64,000 nt of DNA, taken from positions 10,677-74,676 of the forward strand of contig CACJRF010000002.1 in the NCBI GenBank assembly GCA_902595755.1, in the 5' to 3' direction. The position numbers and the translations under genes are program-made. The notes under the pieces were generated by a model that saw nothing but the letters and a program-made list of their open reading frames with translations, was not told where the DNA came from and ran no database searches. Position 1 is the first letter of the stretch. Every line of letters starts with the position of its first letter. This document shows positions 52,315-63,649 of this stretch, one piece after another. Source of the DNA: an uncultured Alphaproteobacteria bacterium (lineage in GTDB: Bacteria; Pseudomonadota; Alphaproteobacteria; Methylaequorales; Methylaequoraceae).

Positions 52315-52641
52315 TTGATGTGGAAAAAAAAATTAATTAAATCAAGCGGAATGCTGTTTTTGTATAAAAAACCACAAATTGTTAATATTTGGATGCATAA
52401 TACTTTTATACCACTTGATATAATTTTCATTGATAAAAATAAAAAAGTTTCAAGTATAAAAGTAGGTAAACCACTGTCGAGAAAAATTATTTCATCTGAT
52501 AAAAAAGTTATTGCTGTGTTAGAGTTGCCTCAAAATTGTTCCAAAAAAATAAGTTTAAACATAGGAGATAAATTAGACTGGATTTATTTAAAATTTTCTA
52601 AAAAAAAAACTTACCATTGTTTATCTTATGATAAAGATTAA
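52315..52641 (+). CDS. DUF192 (COG1430) family protein
   Basis: GLMW.K.L....GMLF......IWM.NT.IPLDIIFID block. The open frame extends upstream to 52159 and encodes a signal-peptide-like IIICFIIITFFHGVNA, but has no ATG/GTG/TTG there (see findings). Confidence 0.65.
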   Translation: MMWKKKLIKSSGMLFLYKKPQIVNIWMHNTFIPLDIIFIDKNKKVSSIKVGKPLSRKIISSDKKVIAVLELPQNCSKKISLNIGDKLDWIYLKFSKKKTYHCLSYDKD

Positions 52642-52661: not shown

Positions 52662-53156
52662 ATGGGGAATTCAATAGATAAATACAGTAAAAATGATCCT
52701 ATATTCAAAGCAGAATTTTCAGAATATATACAAAATTTAAAGTTAGAGAATCAGGATGAACATGATAACTTGTATAAAACAATTTCTTCTCTCAGAGATC
52801 AACTTGATGAATCAAAGTTTACTCTAAAAAATAATGTCCAAGAGGCTATAAGTTCAAAAAATGATGAAATTAATCAATTAAAGTCTACGATTACAGAATT
52901 AAGGCATCAATTAGATAAAGCTCAGCACGAAAAAAAAACAGCTATTCAAAAACAAATACAATCAAGTGCTGATGAAATAAATCAGTTGAAAAAATCATGT
53001 CAGGTTTTAAGAGATGAGCTTGAGACATTAAAATTTGAAAAAAAAGAGGCTATTCAAAAAACAATTTTAAATTCATCTGATGAAATTAATCAGCTTAAGG
53101 AATCAACTCAAAAACTAAGAGATGAACTAGAAACTATTATTAAAAAATTAAAATAA
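52662..53156 (+). CDS. coiled-coil protein with three internal ~37-aa repeats
   Basis: 164 aa. The unit S..DEINQLK.S...LR.ELE....EKK.AIQK occurs three times. The stop overlaps the cyclase start (TAATG). Confidence 0.7.
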   Translation: MGNSIDKYSKNDPIFKAEFSEYIQNLKLENQDEHDNLYKTISSLRDQLDESKFTLKNNVQEAISSKNDEINQLKSTITELRHQLDKAQHEKKTAIQKQIQSSADEINQLKKSCQVLRDELETLKFEKKEAIQKTILNSSDEINQLKESTQKLRDELETIIKKLK

Positions 53157-55459
53157 TGAAAAGAACAACAAAAAATATATTTCCTAATGAAGAAATTAAA
53201 AAAGTTAAGTGTTTACTAGAAATTTCAAGAAAAATTGGAGCACTTAAAGAATTATCACATATACTCTGGACTATTATTGATTTTGCAACGGAAAACGTCA
53301 ATGCTGATAGAGGGTCAATATTTTTAAATGATTCAGAAACAAATGAATTATACTCAAGAGTTGCTCAAGGAGATTTAACTAGAGAGATAAGGATATTAAA
53401 TAATGTTGGTATTGCAGGTTCAATATTCCAGAGTAAGCATGGAGAGATAATTCATGACGTTTATAGCGATAAAAGGTTTAATAAGGATGTAGATCAAGAA
53501 ACTGGTTATAAAACAAAAAATATGATTTGTTCCCCCGTTAAAACCGTCGATGGAAAAACTATTGGTGTTATTCAAGTTTTGAATAAGAAAAAGGGAAGGT
53601 TTAGTAAAGCAGATTTGAATTTAATAAATGATATTTCAACTCAGGCTGCAATTTCGATTCAAAATGCTCAAAACAATGAGTTTTTTCAAAAGAAACGTGA
53701 ACAGGAAATGGAATTTGTAAGTATTGTTTCAGATGTAACTGCTGAGATTGATTTAAGTTCACTTTTAAAAAGGGTAATGGAAGAGGCCACTAAGATGCTT
53801 AATGCAGATAGAGCGACATTATTTCTTAACGATGAAAAAACACAAGAACTTTTTTCAAGGGTAGCAATGGGAGAGGGCGTTGGTGAAATAAGGTTACCAA
53901 ATTCAGTAGGTATTGCTGGAAGTGTTTTTACTTCAGGGAAGACTATGAACATCCCTTTTGCATACGCAGATTTAAGATTTAATCCGGCATTTGATAAACA
54001 AACAGGCTATTTTACAAGATCTATTTTGTGTGTTCCAATCGTTAACAAAATTGGAAAGGTAATTGGTTGTACTCAAGTTTTAAATAAGAAGGGTGGAAAG
54101 TTTACAGATGAGGATGAATCTAGACTGAAAGCTTTCACCCAGCAAGTTGCTATTGCGCTTGAAAATGCAAAGTTGTTTGATGATGTATCAAAATCAAAAA
54201 AATATAATGAAAGTATGCTCTCAAGTATGTCTAATGGTGTTATTACAATTAATGAAGAAGATGAAATTGTAACCTGTAATAAATCTGGGCTTAAAATTTT
54301 AAGAGTTGTAAGTCCAAATATAATTGGATTAAAATCTGAAAGTTTTTTTAAAGAAAAAAATTCTTGGATTCAGGATAAAATCAATGCTGTAAAAAAAAAT
54401 CATGAACCAGAATTAATTATGGATTGTGAGATTGAAGTATTTAATTCAGAAAATGAAAAAAAAGAATTAGTTTCAGCTAACCTGACCATATTACCATTAA
54501 TTAATGAAGAAAATGAGGGAAGAACAGATTCTCAAAATCAATTTCTCGGAACACTATTGATGCTTGAAGATATTTCATCAGAAAAAAGAATGAAATCTAC
54601 GATGTCAAGATATATGGACCCAGGTATAGCGGATCAACTTTTAGAAGAGGGTGCTGATATTATGGGTGGGTTAGATACAACAGCTACACTTTTATTTTCT
54701 GATCTAAGAAGCTTCACAAATATTACCGAGTCACTTGGAGCGCAAGGAACTGTAAAGCTTTTAAATGAGTACTTTGAAATTATGGTTGAGTGTATTACTG
54801 AACAGGCAGGAATGCTTGATAAGTTTATTGGAGATGCGATTATGGCAGCATTTGGCTTGCCAATAAAACATGAAGATGACGAAGATAGAGGAGTTAAGGC
54901 AGGTATAAATATGATTAAAAGACTATGGCAATGGAATGAAGTTCGCAATAAAGAAGGTAAACCTCCCCTTGATATGGGGTTAGGTTTAAATACTGACAAA
55001 ATTGTAGCTGGAAATATAGGTTCACAAAAAAGAATGGATTATACCATGATAGGAGATGGGGTTAATTTAGCAGCAAGGCTTGAAAGCGCATGTAAACAGT
55101 ACAATGCAAGAATCCTAATTAGTGATTTTACTTTTAAAAAACTAAAAGGAACATATAGAATACGATACATTGATGATGTAGTTGTAAAAGGTAAAACAGA
55201 ACCTGTTGGTGTTCATGAAGTGTTAGATTATCATAATGATAAAACATTCCCAAATTTAATGGATGTTGTGAATCATTTTAATGAGGGTAGAAAAAAATAT
55301 AGAATTGGAGATTTCACATCGTCAATTAGTTCTTTTCAGGAATGTTTAAAGGCTAACTCAAATGATTTACTATCAAAAACATATATTGAAAGGTGTGACC
55401 AATTAATAAAAGAAAAGCCAACAAACTGGGATGGGGTTTGGGTCATGAAAAGTAAATGA
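53156..55459 (+). CDS. soluble GAF-GAF-PAS class III adenylate cyclase
   Basis: 767 aa with no TM segment. Two GAF domains (ADRGSIFLND..ELYSRVAQG / ADRATLFLNDE..ELFSRVAMG). A PAS-like segment (MLSSMSNGVITINEEDEIVTCNKSG). Cyclase homology domain with metal Asp residues (LLFSDLRSFT, KFIGDAIMAAFG) and the transition-state block GDGVNLAARLES. Confidence 0.9.
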   Translation: MKRTTKNIFPNEEIKKVKCLLEISRKIGALKELSHILWTIIDFATENVNADRGSIFLNDSETNELYSRVAQGDLTREIRILNNVGIAGSIFQSKHGEIIHDVYSDKRFNKDVDQETGYKTKNMICSPVKTVDGKTIGVIQVLNKKKGRFSKADLNLINDISTQAAISIQNAQNNEFFQKKREQEMEFVSIVSDVTAEIDLSSLLKRVMEEATKMLNADRATLFLNDEKTQELFSRVAMGEGVGEIRLPNSVGIAGSVFTSGKTMNIPFAYADLRFNPAFDKQTGYFTRSILCVPIVNKIGKVIGCTQVLNKKGGKFTDEDESRLKAFTQQVAIALENAKLFDDVSKSKKYNESMLSSMSNGVITINEEDEIVTCNKSGLKILRVVSPNIIGLKSESFFKEKNSWIQDKINAVKKNHEPELIMDCEIEVFNSENEKKELVSANLTILPLINEENEGRTDSQNQFLGTLLMLEDISSEKRMKSTMSRYMDPGIADQLLEEGADIMGGLDTTATLLFSDLRSFTNITESLGAQGTVKLLNEYFEIMVECITEQAGMLDKFIGDAIMAAFGLPIKHEDDEDRGVKAGINMIKRLWQWNEVRNKEGKPPLDMGLGLNTDKIVAGNIGSQKRMDYTMIGDGVNLAARLESACKQYNARILISDFTFKKLKGTYRIRYIDDVVVKGKTEPVGVHEVLDYHNDKTFPNLMDVVNHFNEGRKKYRIGDFTSSISSFQECLKANSNDLLSKTYIERCDQLIKEKPTNWDGVWVMKSK

Positions 55460-56175
55460 GAGAATATCCTCTCGAAAAAAATATGCCTAGCCTTAATTAT
55501 ATTATAAATAATTGGCCAAGATCAAAACCTATTCTGAAAAAGTTTGTGCTTTCTAAACATTCAGCACCAGATCTGTTAAATATTTGTCAATTATGTCTCA
55601 AAGAACTGAAAGTTTTTAGAGAAAAAAAAATTAATTTTATTTTGAGTAAAGTATCTAAAATTTGTTCGATAAATAAAACTTACAACACCTATCATAATAG
55701 CCATCACCTCAAGGCTGTAATTGTAACTGCCTGTATTATTGCAAAAAATAATGAATTATCTAAAAGAGATAAAGTGTTATTAGTTATAATTTCTTTATGT
55801 CATGATATTGGGCATCAAGGAAGAAGAATAATTTCAAGACCTTATTACCAAGAGGAATTGAGTTACCATGTATTTAGGAGATTTTTCTATAAGGTGTTTT
55901 CTAAAAAAAAAGAACTTCAAAGAATTTTAAGAATATTTAGAAATACGTACTTTCCTGAAAAACCAGAAAAAGTTAATGATAAATTAGAAAAAATCATACT
56001 TGATGCTGATATTTTATCCTCATTGATGTTTGATGTGAATACAGGATTAGAATTTGCAAGGAGACTTAAGCATGAATTAAAAATGAAATCTACTTCTGAA
56101 GAGTTATTTGAGTCCTTTCTAAACTCAATCAACAATAAAACATTATATATGGATAGATCAAAAAATTTATGCTAA
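55456..56175 (+). CDS. HD-superfamily phosphohydrolase with class I cyclic-nucleotide phosphodiesterase-like motifs
   Basis: 239 aa with YHNSHHLKAV, then LCHDIGHQG 38 aa later, then ILDADIL. Compare the PDE class I blocks YHN..HAADV / HD.DH.G / LATDM. ATGA overlap with the cyclase gene. Confidence 0.55.
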   Translation: MREYPLEKNMPSLNYIINNWPRSKPILKKFVLSKHSAPDLLNICQLCLKELKVFREKKINFILSKVSKICSINKTYNTYHNSHHLKAVIVTACIIAKNNELSKRDKVLLVIISLCHDIGHQGRRIISRPYYQEELSYHVFRRFFYKVFSKKKELQRILRIFRNTYFPEKPEKVNDKLEKIILDADILSSLMFDVNTGLEFARRLKHELKMKSTSEELFESFLNSINNKTLYMDRSKNLC

Positions 56176-57551
56176 AGATTAAATCTACAGTGACGTTAAG
56201 AATTATACACAATTTATTTTTTGTGGATATGTTAAATTTTGGTAAAGTTATGATTTTACAAAAAGTTGCATTTGTTTTTTTTACTTTTCTTGTTTTTGAA
56301 GCAAATTCTCAAGACAAAGCTTTTGATCTTAAACGGTCTATAGAAAAAGTACTCATAAATCACAAAACAATTCTGGCCTCTAAAACTGATATAGAGGCGG
56401 CTAAACTAAGAATTAAACAATCTAGGGGAGGATATTTCCCATCGCTTGATGTAACAGCAAATTATGGTCATGAAAATATTATAAAATATGGACCAGGAAA
56501 TAATACACAACTAGCAGCAAGAGATGCAACTGCAAAAATTACACAAACACTATCTGATTTCGGATTGACCGAATCAACTGTGAAAACCTCTAAACTTTCT
56601 TTGAAACAAACTAGAGCATTAGAAAGGCAAATAAAAAATGATATTCTTCTTAGAGCCTTAACAGCTTACCTGAGGGTAATTCAGTCAAGAGAAAGTGTAA
56701 AATTTGCAAAACAGTCTGTTGAGAATATTAAAAAACAAACAGAGTTAGAAGACGCTGCTGTAAATGCTGGTGGAGGTTTAACATCAGATGTTTTACAGGC
56801 AAAAACTCAATTAGCTGGTGCTCAAGCAAGGCAAATTCAATTTGAGGGAGTCCTAGATGCTGCAAAACATGAATTTGTATATATTTTTGAGACATTCCCA
56901 AGAGATTTAGAATCTTTAAAATTAATAAAATCTATATTTAACAGGTTGCCCAAAACTTTAGATGAAGCAGAAAAAATAGTCCTTAAAAACAATCCCTCTT
57001 TAATTGCAGCAAGAGTTTCTACTGAAATAAGTAAAGAAGCTATTAATACTGCGAGGGCATCACTTTTTCCTAAAATCAAAGGAATAATAAGTCATTCTGA
57101 AAAACAAGATTTTGGAGGTATAGTTGGTTTTAAAAGAGAAAGTTCAGCTAAGATAGATTTTTCATATCCATTAAATTTAAGTTTTTCTGAATATGCTGGA
57201 AAAGATGCAGCTGTTCAATCATATTTGTCAACACAGACTAGAATTAAAGACCAAGAGGATATGATAACACAGATGTTAAGAACAACTTGGGATGGCTTGT
57301 CAACTGCACAAAAAAATGCAGAATTTTTGTCAAATCAAGCAAGAATCTCTGGAGAGTTTCTCGAACTAGCAAGAACAGAGAGAAAAGCAGGGAACAGAAC
57401 ACTTTTAGATGTTTTGAATGGAGAGACGGCTTTTATTAACTCTCAATCTGATGCAATTGCTGCAAAAATTGAGGTTTTAATAAATAGTTTTACACTTTTA
57501 AGTTTAATGGGAGGATTAACACTAGACAATATTGAACTTGAAAAAAATTAA
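56169..57551 (+). CDS. TolC-family outer membrane protein, type I secretion-associated
   Basis: 460-aa maximal ORF. The likely start is an internal Met (56229 or 56250; signal peptide [20 protein letters not shown]). Two OEP repeats. Ends 3 nt before the first RTX protein gene. Confidence 0.85.
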
Positions 57552-57553
57552 AA

Positions 57554-60511
57554 ATGCTTTCTGATAAAAATATAAATAAAAATCAATCTAATCAATTGGT
57601 TAACAAGCACTACTCAGGCAATGGATTAGATATAAAGAATGCTCCCGAATGGCTTCCTAAAGCAAGCTTTTCAAGAAATGATACAGATTTAATTGCAACT
57701 AATTCAAACTTTGAATCTTATATTTTCATAGATTATTTTACTAATTTTGAATTACCTTCAATATTTACCAATAACGGCTTGATGTTAAAAGGTAATCTTG
57801 TCGAAACTTTAGCTGGAGCACTTTCTAAAGCTCAGTACGTTCAAGCCGCAAGTGGAGAAATTCTTTCTATCGGCGAGGTTTCAACAAAGGAAGGTTCTAT
57901 AATTGCAACAAGATTAGATGGAACTTCAACAGAATTAAATATTGGGGATCCAGTATTTCAAGGTGACACTATTGAAACGGTTGGTAGTGGCTCAGTTGGT
58001 CTTGTTTTTTTAGATAAAACTACCCTATCACTATCGGATGGTGGAAAAATGGTGCTTGATGAGTTAATTTTTGATCCAGCGACAGGCAATGGTAGCATGG
58101 CAGTTGACATGTTAGAAGGAGCATTTAGTTTTGTTAGTGGAGAAATAGCTAAAACAGGACCTGATGCAATGAAAGTTTCTACTCCTGTCGCAACTATTGG
58201 TATCAGAGGAACTACAGTAGCTGGAAAGGCAGCCGTTGAGGGTAATCAGAATTCATTTACTTTACTCCAGGATGCAGATGGTGGAGTAGGACAAATTTCT
58301 GTAAGTAACGATGGAGGAACTCAGGTTTTACAACAAGTTGGTGCTACAACTAGTATATCCAGTTTTACAGCACCTCCACCCCCTCCGATCATTTTAACAG
58401 CAGCACAAATTCAAGCTAATTATGGTACTGCACTTAATGTACTTCCCCCAACACCAACCGTAGCTCCAACACCTCAGACTGCCCCAGCACCCCCACAAGA
58501 AGAACAAGAGCAACAGGTTCAAGAAGAATCTCAAGAGGAAGAGTCTACAGATGAAGATGTATCTGAAGATGAATCATCTGTAGGTTCTGATGAGGAAGGC
58601 CAACCAGAAGGCGAAGAACTACCGGAAGGTGAAGGACCACCGGAAGGTGAAGACCTACTAGAAGGTGAAGGACCACCAGTTGGACCAGATGGAGAACCAC
58701 TTCCTCCAGGTGAAGGAGGCCCTCCATTGGGGCCAGACGGAGAACCACTTCCTCCAGGTGAAGGAGGCCCTCCATTGGGGCCAGACGGAGAACCACTTCC
58801 TCCAGGTGAAGGAGGCCCTCCATTGGGGCCAGACGGAGAACCTTTACCCCCAGGTGAGGGTGGGCCACCTTTAGGAGCAGATGGAGAACCATTATCCCCA
58901 GAGCAAGAAAATGCAGGTAGGGAGGCATTTCAACAAGCATTAGCTGATGGTGCAACCCCAGAGGAAGCTATGGCAGCAGCCGCAGAAGCTGCAGGTTTTG
59001 ATGGTCCAATACCTCCAGGAGGCCCAGAAGGAGATTTTGGTCCAGGAGGACCACAAGGACCAGGTGGTCCAGGAGGAGATTTTGGTCCAGGAGGACCAGG
59101 AGAACCGGGTGGTCCAGGAGGAGATTTTGGTCCAGGAGGAGATTTTGGTCCAGGAGGAGATTTTGGTCCAGGAGGACCAGGAGAACCGGGTGGTCCAGGT
59201 GGAGATTTTGGTCCAGGAGGAGATTTTGGTCCAGGAGGACCAGGAGGACCAGGAGGACCGGGTGGACCGGGTAGTCCAGGTGGAGTTCCATTTGGTGGGC
59301 TTGGATTTGCTGGAGATCCAAGTTCGGATATTTCTGTAAATCCCGGAGGTGATTTTGGTTCTCCTTTTGCTGGTCCGGGAGGCCCGTTAGGTGGTCCAGG
59401 TGGAATAGGGGGATTAAATTCTTCCCCATTTGGTGGTCCTAGTGAAGGATTTAATCCTTCTCCATTTGGTGGCCCTATTGGTTTTGGGCCTGCTGACCCT
59501 TATGGTGCTCCAGGAGGTTTTGGTCCTGATCCATTTGGTGGTCCAGGAGTTTTTGGTCCTGACCCATTTGGTGGTCCAGTTGACCCAATTATGGGTGGAG
59601 GTTATCAAATGGGATTCACAGACCCATTTGGTGGTCCTGTATTTAACGCAATTTATAATGATTTTGGTGGAGGTTTTATAGAGGCATACGGAGATAGTTC
59701 ATATATGATGGAACCAGTTTATTTTTTTGATGATCCAGCTCTTTATGATGATTATATTCCACCAGGAGAGTTTGAGGAGGAATATCAAACTGAGGAACTT
59801 AATCAAACTGACTTTACTCTAAGTGGTACCAGCAGCGCTGACAACATTAGTGCCTCCTCCTCTAATAGCTCTTATACAATTGCTGGTTATAGTGGTGGTG
59901 ATGTTATTACAGGTGGTGCTGGAAATGATGTTTTGTGGGGTGGACTTGGAATTGATTCTTTGACAGGTGGAGATGGTAATGATCAATTTTACTATACAGA
60001 TTTACTTGAAGGTCCTGATGTAATCACAGATTTTGGTCAGAATGCTGATCAAGATAAACTTCTTTTTGCACATTCACCATCATCTCCCTATACACGTACA
60101 TCAGTAGCTGAAGTACAGGGTGAAATTGGAGATTTTGATTATTCAGCGAATGGAAACATTTTACCGTACGTCTTTGCATTTGAAGATTCCAGTCTTTATG
60201 GGGTAACCAGTAAAAGTGTTTTAGCAACGACTTTAGCAAACGGTAATTTTAAAATTTGGGCTGATCAAGCAAATAATCAAGCTCTTGCAGGTGAGCAGTA
60301 TTTTCTTCTTACACCAGGTGCATCAGACACAGGAATTAATGTTTTTGTTTGGACAGACGGAAAAACCCCGCAAGGACAAAATACTGGAACAAGCGACGGC
60401 GTTGTTGATTCAACTGAGCTTTCATATATAGCTAGCTTAGCTGGTGGAGATACGAGTAACATTACTGGAGATGAATTTGCATTCCAATCAATTTCTGGTT
60501 TTAGTGTTTAA
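57554..60511 (+). CDS. large secreted protein: FecR-like N-terminal domain, acidic + Pro/Gly/Phe-rich repeat spacer, RTX Ca-binding repeats (predicted T1SS substrate), paralogue 1
   Basis: 985 aa with no Cys and no Sec signal peptide. FecR-like block [40 protein letters not shown] (about nt 57870-58230). Tandem [16 protein letters not shown] and GDFGPG repeats. RTX nonapeptides [28 protein letters not shown] (about nt 59890-59996). Confidence 0.85.
57641..58456 (+). repeat. paralogous block A (N-terminal region incl. FecR-like domain), copy 1 of 2
   Basis: Aligns by eye along its whole length with 60746-61565. Long stretches are identical at the amino-acid level (e.g. [35 protein letters not shown]) but differ at many synonymous sites. 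Confidence 0.9.
58682..58900 (+). repeat. in-frame 48-bp tandem repeat ([16 protein letters not shown]), about 4.5 copies
   Basis: Copies at 58682-58729, 58730-58777, 58778-58825 and 58826-58873, plus a partial copy. Copies 2 and 3 are identical at 48/48 nt. Copy 1 differs at 2 synonymous positions. Copy 4 is diverged. Confidence 0.95.
59030..59285 (+). repeat. in-frame 18-bp tandem repeat ggagattttggtccagga (GDFGPG) interleaved with [10 protein letters not shown] units (a 45-bp higher-order unit occurs twice)
   Basis: Direct reading shows at least 7 near-identical GDFGPG units. The unit ggagattttggtccaggaggaccaggagaaccgggtggtccagg is repeated. Confidence 0.9.
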
Positions 60512-60673: not shown

Positions 60674-63649
60674 ATGTTTACAAATCAGATAGACAAGATC
60701 AATAATAAATCAATATTTGCGGGTTCACCTAATCTTATCAAGAATCTTCCGGATTGGTTGCCAAAGGCCGACTTTCACAGATCTTCAAGTGATTTAGTAG
60801 CTAAATCAAGTTCAAATAATGAGCAAATAACATTGGTTGATTATTTTTCTAACTTTGACCTTCCATCAGTCTTAACCAGTAATGGTCTTTTATTAAATGG
60901 TTCACTGTTATCAACTTTAGCAGGGCCAGTTTCAATTGGAAAATATGCTCAAGCAGCTGAAACAGAAGTTCTCTCAATTGGAGAAGTAACAAGTGTCAAC
61001 GGAACGGTTAAGGCTACTAGAGTTGATGGAAACATTTTTGAGTTAAGTGTTGGAGACCCTGTGTTTCAGGGAGATACAATTGAAACTACTGGTAATGGGT
61101 CTGTTGGTTTAGTTTTTATAGATAAAACTACTTTTTCACTATCCGAGGGTGGAAAAATGGTACTTGATGAACTTGTTTATGACTCATCAACTGGAAATGG
61201 TAGTATGACTGTTGATATGTTAGAAGGAGCTTTCAGTTTTATAAGTGGTGAAGTAGCAAAAACTGGACCTGATGCCATGCAACTAAAAACACCAGTTGTA
61301 ACCATGGGAATAAGAGGAACAACAGTGGCTGGTAAGGCAGCAGTTGAAGGTAATGAAAATTCATTTACACTTCTGCAAGATGCAGATGGTGGTGTTGGTC
61401 AAATTTCTGTAAGTAATGATGGAGGAACCCAAGTGTTATCTCAGGTTGGTGCAACAACAGTTGTATCTAGTTTCACCGCAGCTCCACCTCAACCCATAAT
61501 TTTGACAACGGCACAAATCCAGGCAAATTATGGAACAGCTCTTAACGTTTTACCTCCAACTCCAGCTGTAGCACCTCAGCCTCAATCTGCACCACCACCC
61601 CAAGAGGAGGTGCAAGAAGAGGCAACACAAGAAGAAACAGAGGAAGATAGCGATGAGAATTCTGAAGAGGAAGGAAATGAAGATGTATCAGAAGAGGGGG
61701 ACAGTGAATCTGATGGTGAGGAAAATCAATCTGAGGAAGGTCTTCTAGAAGAAGAGGGAGTTGCAGAAGGGGACGGTGAGGCGCTAGAAGGAGAGGGACC
61801 ACCAGAAGGAGAAGGCACTTCTGAAGAGGAAGGTCCTCTAGATGGAGAGGGTCCTCCCCCAGAAGGTGGAGAAGAGGGCCCAGCATTAGGACCTGATGGC
61901 GAAGCCTTATCTTCAGAACAAGAACCTGCTGGGGAAGAAGCATTTGAACAAGCCATAGCAGACGGGGCTACACCGGAAGAAGCTATGGCAGCTGCAGCTG
62001 CAGCTACAGGTTTTGATGGTCCTGCAGCTCCAGGAGAACTAGGAGGCCCTGAAGGACCTGGAGGCCCAGGAGATTTAGGACCTGGAGGCCCGGGAGATTT
62101 AGGACCAGCAGGAGGCACGGGGGATTTAGGGCCAGCAGGAGGTCCTGAAGGACTATCGGGAGGAAATCTTGGTGACCCTTTTAGTAGTCCAGGTAATCCA
62201 GGAAATTTTGGAGTTCCCAGTGGATTTAGTCCCTCTTCATTGGGTGGCCCTGTTGGAGGTTTTAATTCATCTCCATTTAGTAGTCCAGTTGGTTTTGCTG
62301 CTGGCCCTTATGGTGACATTGGAATTGGTCCTGACCCGTTTGGTGGCGTTCCGGGAGGTTTTGGTCCTGATCCATTTGGAAGTCCAATTGGCGGTCCAGA
62401 TTTATTTGGTGGACCCGAACTTGCAGGTTATGAAGATTTGAGTACCATGGAATCTTTCGAACCAATCTTTTTCTTTGATGATCCTTCTTTATATAATGAC
62501 TTTTTAGAACCTCCACTTGAATTAGAAGAGAATCTAGGATCCTCATCTTCTAATGCGGGACAAACTTTAACCGGCGATTCCGGATCTAATGTAATTAATG
62601 GGACTGATGGCGATGATACAATTGATGGAGGCTTAGGTGTTGATACACTAACTGGGGGTAATGGAAGTGATATTTTTGTTTTATCTGATTTTGGTGATAC
62701 AATTACTGATTTCACTACATCAGATTCTTTGAGAATAAATTTTACCTTTGACCCTCCATCAACAACCTATAATGTAGTAAGATCAGATTTCTATACATTT
62801 GAGGCATCTTCTTCTACTGGATCATTGACATGGAACTCCACACCATCAAGTTCTTCACAAATTATAACTGAAACAGAGAGTAACGGTGCATTTAGTAATG
62901 CTCAAGTAATTAGCAGATCTTCTTTTAAAGTTACTGCTAACCCAGAAGTTGGTAATGATACAGATCCTTGGGTAAATATCGAAAGTGGTTATATAAGTAA
63001 TGGTGTTGATATTTTTAAGGTAGATTTACAAGCAGGGGAAAAACTGACAGTTGATGTAGATTATGGTGATTCTTTTAGTAGAAGTTTTGATTCTTATATT
63101 ACAATTTATGATTCAACTTATAACAGTGTAGCTGAAAATGACAACTCATTAGTTTCACAAGGTGGGACAGGAAGTTCTGGAACATTAGATTCATTTGTAG
63201 AATATACAACGAATTCAAATCAAACCCATTATATATTTGTAGAGGATGCTCCCAAGAATTCAAACTCAAATACAACTGGAGACTATGAATTAAATATTAG
63301 TATAACTCCAACTGCTTCATCTACAGGATTAGGTGTGAGTTCGAGTAGTAATGTCGGTGGAAATAACGAATTACCGTATGTAATAAATTTAGTTGAGGAT
63401 ACGAGTAATTACCTTTCAAAAAGTTTCAAAAGTGGTTTGGTTTCTTCTATTAGATATACAAATGCTACAACTAATACTGGAAGTGAAATATTCCTTGTTG
63501 CTGGTGACGGTACAAATAGTGCTATTTGGATGTGGGATGATTTATCACAAGGGTATGGAATAAGTGATAATGAGTTAACATTTGTGGCTCATTTAGAAAA
63601 TTTTGATAATGATAATCTATCAAGCTCACAAATTTCTTTTACGTCATAA
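60674..63649 (+). CDS. large secreted protein: FecR-like N-terminal domain, acidic/Pro-Gly spacer, RTX repeats, PPC (pre-peptidase C-terminal)-like domain (predicted T1SS substrate), paralogue 2
   Basis: 991 aa with no Cys and no Sec signal. The N-terminal ~300 aa are closely similar to paralogue 1. RTX block GTDGDDTIDGGLGVDTLTGGNGSDIFVL (about nt 62575-62690). PPC-like domain ETESNGAFSNAQVI...DIFKVDLQAGEKLTVDV...ITIYDS...GDYELNISI (about nt 62872-63312). Confidence 0.85.
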   Translation: MFTNQIDKINNKSIFAGSPNLIKNLPDWLPKADFHRSSSDLVAKSSSNNEQITLVDYFSNFDLPSVLTSNGLLLNGSLLSTLAGPVSIGKYAQAAETEVLSIGEVTSVNGTVKATRVDGNIFELSVGDPVFQGDTIETTGNGSVGLVFIDKTTFSLSEGGKMVLDELVYDSSTGNGSMTVDMLEGAFSFISGEVAKTGPDAMQLKTPVVTMGIRGTTVAGKAAVEGNENSFTLLQDADGGVGQISVSNDGGTQVLSQVGATTVVSSFTAAPPQPIILTTAQIQANYGTALNVLPPTPAVAPQPQSAPPPQEEVQEEATQEETEEDSDENSEEEGNEDVSEEGDSESDGEENQSEEGLLEEEGVAEGDGEALEGEGPPEGEGTSEEEGPLDGEGPPPEGGEEGPALGPDGEALSSEQEPAGEEAFEQAIADGATPEEAMAAAAAATGFDGPAAPGELGGPEGPGGPGDLGPGGPGDLGPAGGTGDLGPAGGPEGLSGGNLGDPFSSPGNPGNFGVPSGFSPSSLGGPVGGFNSSPFSSPVGFAAGPYGDIGIGPDPFGGVPGGFGPDPFGSPIGGPDLFGGPELAGYEDLSTMESFEPIFFFDDPSLYNDFLEPPLELEENLGSSSSNAGQTLTGDSGSNVINGTDGDDTIDGGLGVDTLTGGNGSDIFVLSDFGDTITDFTTSDSLRINFTFDPPSTTYNVVRSDFYTFEASSSTGSLTWNSTPSSSSQIITETESNGAFSNAQVISRSSFKVTANPEVGNDTDPWVNIESGYISNGVDIFKVDLQAGEKLTVDVDYGDSFSRSFDSYITIYDSTYNSVAENDNSLVSQGGTGSSGTLDSFVEYTTNSNQTHYIFVEDAPKNSNSNTTGDYELNISITPTASSTGLGVSSSSNVGGNNELPYVINLVEDTSNYLSKSFKSGLVSSIRYTNATTNTGSEIFLVAGDGTNSAIWMWDDLSQGYGISDNELTFVAHLENFDNDNLSSSQISFTS
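60746..61565 (+). repeat. paralogous block A, copy 2 of 2
   Basis: See 57641-58456. Confidence 0.9.
62057..62150 (+). repeat. in-frame 24-27-bp tandem repeat (PGGPGDLG / PAGGTGDLG), about 3.5 copies
   Basis: The sequence reads cctggaggcccaggagatttagga / cctggaggcccgggagatttagga / ccagcaggaggcacgggggatttaggg / ccagcaggaggtcct... Confidence 0.8.

Follow-up and report, generated by a model that had tools for sequence, protein, structure and literature searches.

Can a bacterium carry, beside a nucleotide cyclase gene, a phosphodiesterase whose catalytic core is of the eukaryotic kind? In the textbook account, class I cyclic nucleotide phosphodiesterases (PDEs) are confined to eukaryotes and bacteria have class II and class III enzymes, with class III being described as confined to prokaryotes (PMC1431542). 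The question is raised by a window of 64,000 nucleotides (the whole stretch of DNA analysed here) from an uncultured alphaproteobacterium (assembly GCA_902595755.1, contig CACJRF010000002.1, positions 10,677 to 74,676), in which an open reading frame (ORF) at 55456..56175 on the plus strand encodes a 239-residue, PDE-like protein of the HD superfamily. A preliminary description had taken this HD protein for a minimal class I-like PDE paired with the cyclase encoded directly upstream. As judged from its sequence, it is very likely a catalytically active phosphodiesterase of the HD superfamily with a bimetal site, its catalytic core being homologous to the one in class I PDEs, and it may remove the cyclic AMP (cAMP) made by its neighbour.

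The HD protein and its family

The ORF and the three motifs on which that description relied are real: they are present in the translation (YHNSHHLKAV at residues 79-88, LCHDIGHQG at 114-122, and ILDADIL at 181-187) and are conserved among relatives. The spacing of 38 residues given for the first two needs correction, since the distance from H80 to H116 is 36 residues (H160 to H200 in PDE4D2 is 40). The H...HD...D motif and a score above the gathering threshold of PF01966 place the protein in the HD superfamily. The overlap with the upstream cyclase gene is equally real: in the junction aaATGAgag, the start codon of the HD gene (ATG, 55456-55458) shares two bases with the stop codon of the cyclase gene (TGA, 55457-55459). 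Three alignments are referred to below, namely A1 (the close-family profile), A2 (the broad family profile), and A9 (34 aligned proteins of a sister group). The features of the HD gene are as follows.

55456..56175, plus strand: HD-superfamily, PDE-like protein, 239 residues (Pfam HD 24.5 bits, PDEase_I 22.2 bits; AlphaFold2 model)
55456..55459, plus strand: ATGA start/stop overlap of the cyclase and HD genes (sequence)
55456..55680, plus strand: N-terminal extension, residues 1-75, four helices, with conserved P11, Y15, W20-P21, and K24 (A1 and A2)
55690..55707, plus strand: YHNSHH, residues 79-84, matched to YHNxxH of the PDEs in HMMER and hhalign alignments
55801..55821, plus strand: HDIGHQG, residues 116-122, invariant in 40 of 40 members and the core of every PDE alignment
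55852..55854, plus strand: E133, at least 90% conserved, matched to PDE4D2 E230 (merged-profile hhalign)
55945..55947, plus strand: T164, at least 90% conserved, matched to T271 of the PDE LATDM motif (merged-profile hhalign)
56002..56010, plus strand: D183-A184-D185, with D185 invariant and matched to PDE4D2 D318 (merged-profile hhalign)
56074..56076, plus strand: E207, invariant, matched to PDE4D2 E339 (merged-profile hhalign)
56116..56118, plus strand: F221, invariant, matched to F372 by a permissive alignment without statistical support

Close homologues number about 60, all 239-261 residues long, 49-95% identical, and found in marine metagenomes, while HMMER, run exhaustively over 1.84 billion representatives, added full-length relatives at 22-30% identity. 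A metagenome scan with a narrower alignment, A5, returned only 3 loci. In the 40-sequence family alignment, which reaches down to 18% identity, H80, H84, V88, H116, D117, H120, G122, D185, E207, and F221 are invariant, and Y79, N77, E133, T164, D183, and S189 are at least 90% conserved; the Asn of YHN (N81) is not conserved. The motifs of the HD protein are thus not a matter of chance, since the catalytic residues do not vary across this alignment. All four predicted metal ligands (H84, H116, D117, and D185) are invariant, and the four metal ligands of class I PDEs are likewise His, His, Asp, and Asp (PMC13095499). In two divergent loci (L027 and L028), D183 is replaced by Thr or Ser and D185 is retained, which marks D185 as the essential Asp. 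Conservation of the predicted metal ligands together with the putative general-acid His is the pattern that one would expect of an active enzyme, and a ratio of nonsynonymous to synonymous substitution rates (dN/dS) of 0.12-0.18 shows that the gene is under purifying selection.

Relationship to class I phosphodiesterases

Searched as a single sequence, the HD protein scores 24.5 bits with the Pfam HD model (PF01966, cut-off 22), residues 83-188 covering profile positions 3-114 of 116, and 22.2 bits with PDEase_I (PF00233), below the cut-off of 24.8 and over profile positions 1-49 of 238 only. The comparison of these two models, proposed in the preliminary description as a check, therefore goes narrowly against class I, and the near-tie made analysis at the level of profiles and structures necessary. 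Among the close members, PF01966 matches 36 of 39 and PF00233, at E<=1, matches 21 of 39 (best E 4.2e-5), with distant members at 15-19 bits. NCBIfam gave no meaningful match for the HD protein.

Searches of the PDB with the family profiles returned only class I PDEs among the 60 sequences listed, both for A1 (best E 3.3e-5) and for A2 (best E 2.7e-7), and in a search of 5.8 billion sequences, A2 recovers P0189, a PDEase_I protein with a PF00233 score of 98 bits, at E 9e-5. The catalytic-domain sequences of PDE4D and PDE5A used for direct comparison are 100% identical to PDB chains. In hhalign, A2 aligns with PDE4D plus PDE5A at 91.6% probability and with P0189 at 95.6% over 69 columns, and when the N-terminal half of the family is set against the N-terminal half of the PDEs, the probability is 97.5% (E 6.5e-12). 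The alignment takes in the helix upstream of YH, the last helix of the N-terminal extension (residues ~57-71) being matched to the PDE helix that precedes YHN. Against single templates, the family scores 30 with Lin1889 and 33 with 2pq7, both of them generic HD proteins, versus 54 with PDE5A and 62 with P0189. At the level of profiles, these comparisons show the N-terminal catalytic half to be homologous to class I PDEs, and the family is measurably closer to them than to any generic HD protein of known structure.

A merged profile of the family and A9 aligns with the PDEs at 96.7% over 150 columns, and it alone carried the alignment through D185 and E207. In the alignments H80 falls on the general-acid H160 of PDE4D2, H84 on the Zn ligand H164, H116/D117 on H200/D201, H120 on H204, and G122 on G206, and the merged profile adds E133 on E230, T164 on T271, D185 on D318, and E207 on E339. 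The pairing of D185 with D318 rests on the merged-profile hhalign and the extent of the Pfam HD model, not on coordinates. It nevertheless alters one assignment made earlier, in which the Asp of ILDADIL was read as a LATDM-type residue: the best alignment puts D185 on D318 (in CADLS) and T164 on the Thr of LATDM, and the counterpart of T164 in the sister group, T125, is invariant. The first seven positions of the class I signature, HD[LIVMFY]xHx[AG], match every member, and the signature, which the positive controls PDE4D and PDE5A match, then breaks at the Asn and the next hydrophobic position in 40 of 40 members. The block Y79-H80...H84 aligns to Y159-H160...H164 of the PDEs; it is carried by the sister group too and so is not specific to class I. 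Of the class I-like blocks proposed at the outset, the closer kinship with class I PDEs than with generic HD proteins holds in profiles, hhalign, and Foldseek alike, and the idea that YHNxxH and HDxxH are themselves diagnostic does not, because the sister group has both and Lin1889 and 2pq7 have HxxxH.

The F221 position may be the counterpart of the PDE clamp phenylalanine F372, according to a low-confidence, permissive alignment that also lays F218 (or Leu) on Q369. An attempt to enlarge the PDE profile from the PDE4D/PDE5A/P0189 alignment was abandoned, as it brought no diversity, each of the 120 proteins listed being a PDE4D orthologue from a vertebrate. P0189 itself (L042, 1309-2298) is a divergent bona fide PDEase_I protein of 329 residues, with RYHAYFH in place of YHNxxH and MSDVSS at the fourth-ligand Asp; it is encoded on a 3.7-kb metagenome contig beside a leucine-rich repeat protein and is the best-scoring PDE against the window family.

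Predicted structure

AlphaFold2 models were obtained for the window protein (pLDDT 84.8, pTM 0.86, 12 helices) and for a relative, P0183, at about 23% identity to it (pLDDT 85.3, pTM 0.88). The fold search suggested in the preliminary description bore out its expectation: for both models, the top 50 Foldseek matches in the PDB are all class I PDE catalytic domains, although, with PDE chains numbering in the hundreds in the PDB, an all-PDE top 50 hides the rank of the first non-PDE. RhoPDE, PDE2A, PDE5A, PDE10A, PDE1B, TcrPDEC1, and LmjPDEB1 are among the neighbours. The similarity is moderate, with E values of 5e-4 to 1e-2 and TMq of 0.45-0.62 (best per model 0.61-0.62). The models thus show a PDE-like predicted fold.

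A sister group of shorter HD proteins

The same exhaustive search found, at E 1e-5 to 1e-3, bacterial HD proteins of ~200 residues, whose alignment A9 displays the motifs YHNxxH..V, HDxGH, AT, DAD, and E. In hhalign, the family and A9 match at 99.6% (E 8e-24) over 162 columns, beginning at residue 70 and ending at 239; by this measure, the two are sister groups across the whole catalytic domain. PF00233 matches 14 of the 34 A9 members (best E 2.6e-7), a similar likeness to PDEs. The ~70-residue N-terminal extension is lacking in the sister group and thus specific to the window family, and the gene contexts and fusions of the two groups also differ.

The closest solved relatives of A9 are Lin1889 (3b57, 2.5e-12), 2pq7, YedJ, 3djb, 5dqv, and SE1688, followed by PDE10A at 6e-8. 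Against single templates, A9 scores 72 with Lin1889, 75 with 2pq7, 51 with PDE5A, and 56.5 with P0189 (166 columns), and its hhalign probability with Lin1889 and 2pq7 is 97-98%, versus 30-60% for the window family. By these alignments, the PDE-type catalytic constellation is a real trait of a wider bacterial clade of "YHN-type" HD proteins, of which the window family is, on the same evidence, an N-terminally extended branch that is more PDE-like and less Lin1889-like.

Some members of the sister group occur beside signalling proteins or fused to them. In Bacteroidota, two carry a PycTM (2TM) effector domain as a C-terminal fusion (L029, 5929-7122; L031, 5908-7092), recognized by Pfam at 125 and 96 bits and also by the PADLOC PycTM models, and a convergent neighbour of the second (L031, 7082-8212, minus strand) has a weak match to PycC (E 5e-4). 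Canonical PycTM effectors carry a sensor domain for cyclic mononucleotides (cNMPs) N-terminal to PycTM; HD-PycTM, which has its HD domain in that position ahead of the membrane module, may represent an effector of the Pycsar-like kind. In a Saprospiraceae operon (L030, 2293-6561), genes for a histidine kinase, a REC protein, a REC-class III cyclase, and a YitT-DUF2179 membrane protein are followed by one for a YHN-type HD protein of 212 residues, which overlaps the YitT/DUF2179 gene. This is a second, independent association of a cyclase with an HD protein of the clade.

The cyclase partner and the operon

Housekeeping genes (for TatC, SerS, PCMT, and SecDF) flank the region, the G+C content of the window is 29%, and its proteins are 90-98% identical to those of a marine alphaproteobacterial metagenome-assembled genome (MAG), with Pelagibacteraceae bacterium TMED13 also near. 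Around the HD gene, the following features are arranged.

52315..52641, plus strand: DUF192 protein, upstream synteny anchor (PF02643, 72.7 bits), kept in 28 of 28 loci
52662..53156, plus strand: coiled-coil protein, 164 residues, with only coiled-coil-type Pfam noise
53156..55459, plus strand: class III cyclase with GAF-GAF-PAS architecture, 767 residues (Pfam)
53252-53665, 53750-54163, 54209-54517, and 54683-55201, plus strand: GAF, GAF, PAS, and catalytic domains of the cyclase (Pfam)
56169..57551, plus strand: TolC-like outer-membrane efflux protein (OEP; PF02321, 184.9 bits)
57554..60511, plus strand: FecR-domain/RTX-repeat protein, first of two, 985 residues (Pfam FecR and HemolysinCabind; synteny)
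60674..63649, plus strand: FecR-domain/RTX-repeat protein, second of two, 991 residues

The order DUF192, coiled coil, cyclase, HD, OEP, FecR-RTX is kept in 26 loci. The pairing of cyclase and HD gene, read in the preliminary description from the overlap alone, recurs in 26 of 28 loci of a Pelagibacterales-type clade, with the same 4-nucleotide overlap geometry in about 21 of the 26 paired loci. It does not extend to all members: L027 (3530-4717) and L028 (5492-6711) have an intact HD gene without an adjacent cyclase, and distant relatives lie in operons of another kind. The link of the HD gene with a cyclase is therefore lineage-specific. Both of these loci are more divergent, and in both the DUF192 gene stands directly upstream of the HD gene; the coiled-coil gene, present in L001-L026, is missing there together with the cyclase, so that the two come and go as one insertion/deletion unit. 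The coiled-coil protein, always found beside the cyclase, has an internal repeat of ~37 residues in three copies with DEINQLK.

The best PDB relatives of the cyclase are the cAMP-binding tandem GAF of CyaB2 (1ykd, 4e-46) and bacterial adenylate cyclase domains, and then the GAF domains of PDE5, PDE2, and PDE10. Its sequence has Lys in DKFIGD and Thr in YTMIGD, a pattern which we take to be the mark of class IIIb adenylate cyclases, and it is probably an adenylate cyclase. Anabaena CyaB1 and CyaB2 share its GAF-GAF-PAS-cyclase architecture; to our knowledge, no dedicated downstream HD gene has been described for either. The two neighbouring genes of the window jointly hold the parts of a eukaryotic GAF-PDE, divided between the cyclase (GAF tandem 53252-54163) and the minimal PDE-like protein. 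The same components, namely tandem GAF domains like those of CyaB2, PDE2, and PDE5, a class III cyclase, and a catalytic core of the PDE type, make up the GAF-regulated PDEs (PDE2/5/10) and the streptophyte CAPE cyclase-PDE fusion (PMC8115329) taken together. In the window, however, it is the cyclase that bears the GAF domains, next to a separate and minimal PDE-like protein, whereas the eukaryotic proteins carry canonical PF00233 domains.

Downstream, the OEP probably starts at about 56229-56250, as its relatives align only from about residue 23-52 on. The two FecR/RTX proteins, of ~990 residues, each have an N-terminal FecR domain, long low-complexity repeats rich in Pro, Gly, Glu, and Asp, and one match to an RTX calcium-binding repeat, and standing downstream of a TolC-like OEP, they look like a cargo cluster of the type I secretion type. 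Their repeats also yield spurious long ORFs on both strands (58545-59429).

Distant relatives in partner-switching operons

Relatives at 22-28% identity are encoded in operons of overlapping genes in the order STAS, GAF-PP2C (SpoIIE), HATPase_c_2 (RsbW-like), HD, and an ORF of 82 residues. The HD gene is the fourth in such an operon at L034 (5291-8025), with equivalents in L036, L038, and L039, and P0076 is a fusion of HATPase_c_2 and HD. From this arrangement, the HD enzyme would seem to serve as output for a partner-switching module that lacks a sigma factor. The GAF domain of the PP2C protein finds its best matches in GAF-B of PDE2A and GAF-A of PDE5, at about 1e-6, which is weak evidence, since PDE GAFs dominate the PDB. 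The small ORF of 82-85 residues (L034, 7777-8025; equivalents in L035-L038) overlaps the stop codon of the HD gene and has neither a Pfam match nor a counterpart in the window. Prepilin peptidase, T2SSE ATPase, pilin, and secretin genes, of the type IV pilus or type II secretion type, are neighbours of these operons.

Function of the HD protein

Of the readings considered, we prefer the one in which the HD protein is a metal-dependent phosphodiesterase that removes the cAMP of the cyclase, and we give it an even chance. It would be a cytoplasmic, all-helical enzyme of the HD/PDEase superfamily, binding two metal ions through the predicted ligands H84, H116, D117, and D185, with H120, E133, and T164 as a predicted second shell and H80 as the general acid protonating the leaving O3', a constellation that would be the one used by class I PDEs. 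Translationally coupled to a CyaB1/CyaB2-like GAF-GAF-PAS adenylate cyclase, the protein would hydrolyse the product, 3',5'-cAMP, to 5'-AMP, and the signal would thereby be ended or thresholded. The conserved operon and the purifying selection are matters of observation; the substrate, the catalytic roles of single residues, and the coupling with the cyclase are what we infer from them and from the alignments. Links of the wider HD clade to cyclic-mononucleotide signalling come from independent lines, namely the L030 operon, the HD-PycTM fusions, and the GAF-PP2C operons.

A good deal weighs against this cAMP-removing role and the class I kinship behind it. Class I PDE domains (PF00233; Salpingoeca RhoPDE 5vyd and human PDE10A, PDE5A, and PDE4D2) share with the HD protein an all-alpha HD-type fold, the helix before YHN, and the co-linear series Y-H...H, HDxxHxG, Glu, Thr, Asp, Glu, and they are its best neighbours in the PDB by both sequence and fold. 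They are, however, larger, with about 330 residues and, in the canonical domain, about 16 helices (PMC13095499) versus 239 residues and 12 helices, and the distance from HD to the metal-binding Asp is 117 residues in PDE4D2 versus 68 here. The class I signature, even in a looser [NQ] form, matches none of the 39 and none of the 40 members, the Asn and the hydrophobic residue being missing throughout, and the C-terminal third has no invariant Gln to match the purine-recognizing Q369 of PDE4D2. Beyond G122, the C-terminal half scores 11.8 against the PDEs in hhalign, where shuffled controls have a mean of 10.5 and a maximum of 14.2, and it does no better than reversed controls either; a profile of this half alone has no PDB match at E<=10. 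To these are added the sub-threshold PDEase_I score and the abundance of PDE chains in the PDB, already mentioned, and the fact that the nearest relatives are bacterial HD proteins resembling generic hydrolases of the Lin1889, 2pq7, YedJ, and 5dqv type. By formal criteria applied to its sequence, the HD protein is not a class I PDE on any count. As for the context, two loci do without the cyclase, most of the wider family adjoins RsbW-like proteins and not cyclases, and the HD gene changes 3-4 times faster than its operon neighbours: its dN/dS compares with 0.035-0.054 for the cyclase and 0.037-0.081 for the OEP (region 56250-57551), and its protein identity across loci is about 50-57%, versus about 80% and about 75%. 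In this comparison, the identities of L003 are underestimated owing to ambiguous bases in that MAG, and the OEP value of L004 is invalid owing to frameshifts.

Much of the same evidence can be claimed for a generic HD nucleotide phosphohydrolase, such as a nucleotidase or (d)NTP pyrophosphohydrolase resembling YpgQ, YedJ, or Lin1889, whose PDE-like motifs would reflect no more than shared HD ancestry and for whose substrate the adjacent cyclase would be irrelevant. The Pfam HD model is the sole one over threshold, the 99.6% homology is to ~200-residue proteins whose best solved relatives are Lin1889, 2pq7, YedJ, 3djb, 5dqv (presumably YpgQ, a nucleotide pyrophosphohydrolase), and SE1688, the HxxxH dyad is found in Lin1889 and 2pq7, generic HD domains typically show an HD-to-Asp spacing like the 68 residues seen here, and the two loci without a cyclase would cause no difficulty. 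Hydrolases of this type (3b57, 2pq7, 3gw7, and 5dqv) also resemble the HD protein in their HxxxH...HD...D fold and comparable domain size. They lack HDxxHxG, however, and the family itself, at 30-33 against Lin1889 and 2pq7 and 54-62 against PDE5A and P0189, leans the other way: no such protein appears among its 60 listed PDB sequence matches or its 50 listed Foldseek matches, HDxxHxG, E133, T164, and E207 fit PDE-specific positions, and both groups, the window family and its sister, are repeatedly found with components of signalling systems (PycTM, cyclases, and GAF-PP2C/RsbW modules). We consider a generic hydrolase rather unlikely. An enzyme for some other messenger (a cyclic dinucleotide, cCMP or cUMP, a 2',3'-cNMP, or (p)ppGpp) seems improbable. 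It would be controlled by its partner, an RsbW-like kinase of the anti-sigma type in most lineages and here possibly the cyclase or the coiled-coil protein, as would accord with the overlapping STAS/GAF-PP2C/HATPase_c_2/HD operons of distant relatives, the P0076 fusion, and the conserved family-specific N-terminal extension. The Arg-rich GRR after HDxxHxG, where PDEs have VxN, the absent glutamine switch, and the fusion of the sister group to PycTM, which responds to cCMP/cUMP in Pycsar, point in the same direction. In the window, however, no partner-switching gene lies near the HD gene, and its partner is a tightly coupled cyclase nearest to adenylate cyclases; the sequence has no GYP motif, no extra His ligands of the HD-GYP type, and no HDxxED, the motif of (p)ppGpp hydrolases. 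The last possibility, an HD pseudoenzyme that binds nucleotide without cleaving it and serves as an inert scaffold or a sensor, would suit the faster evolution of the gene and the position of HD in the PycTM fusions, N-terminal to PycTM as canonical cNMP sensors are; since neither the predicted metal ligands nor the general-acid His varies among members as little as 18% identical, it is highly improbable.

Three assignments were rejected. An HD-GYP cyclic-dinucleotide phosphodiesterase is contradicted by the lack of GYP in the sequence and of any HD_5 or HD-GYP-type Pfam match, and the class III CpdA type by the lack of a Metallophos match in Pfam or NCBIfam. A Pycsar or other anti-phage cyclase system was discarded as well: the HD protein has no PADLOC match, and the cyclase matches PycC only via the shared cyclase fold. 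The Pycsar-like reading fails because the cyclase is a GAF-GAF-PAS sensor protein, about 80% conserved, in core synteny among housekeeping genes.

Significance

The HD protein belongs to an uncharacterized bacterial family; in the literature on bacterial class I-like PDEs, partner-switching HD proteins, cAMP signalling in SAR11, and HD-PycTM, no description of it was found. In its presumed role of removing cAMP from a bacterial cyclase, it resembles CpdA and Rv0805, class III enzymes of metallophosphoesterase fold, with which it shares neither fold nor catalytic motifs. A bolder proposal, which we regard as unlikely, is that the family and its ~200-residue sister group form an unrecognized bacterial clade, the nearest relative among prokaryotes of the catalytic domain of eukaryotic class I PDEs and perhaps its progenitor type, and make up a fourth kind of bacterial cyclic-mononucleotide phosphodiesterase, repeatedly recruited by a CyaB-like cyclase, by GAF-PP2C/RsbW output modules, and by Pycsar-type membrane effectors in Bacteroidota.

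If the HD protein were an ordinary nucleotide hydrolase, this would be merely another uncharacterized HD family. If it hydrolyses cAMP, it would represent a new type of bacterial PDE sharing its catalytic core with PDEs that are drug targets, would serve, with its 239 residues, as a minimal model for studying the active site of PDEs, and would complete a cyclase/PDE signalling pair for the abundant marine bacteria of the Pelagibacterales type. The recurrent ties of the wider clade with cyclases, GAF-PP2C proteins, and Pycsar effectors make the origin of the eukaryotic GAF-PDEs a testable matter.

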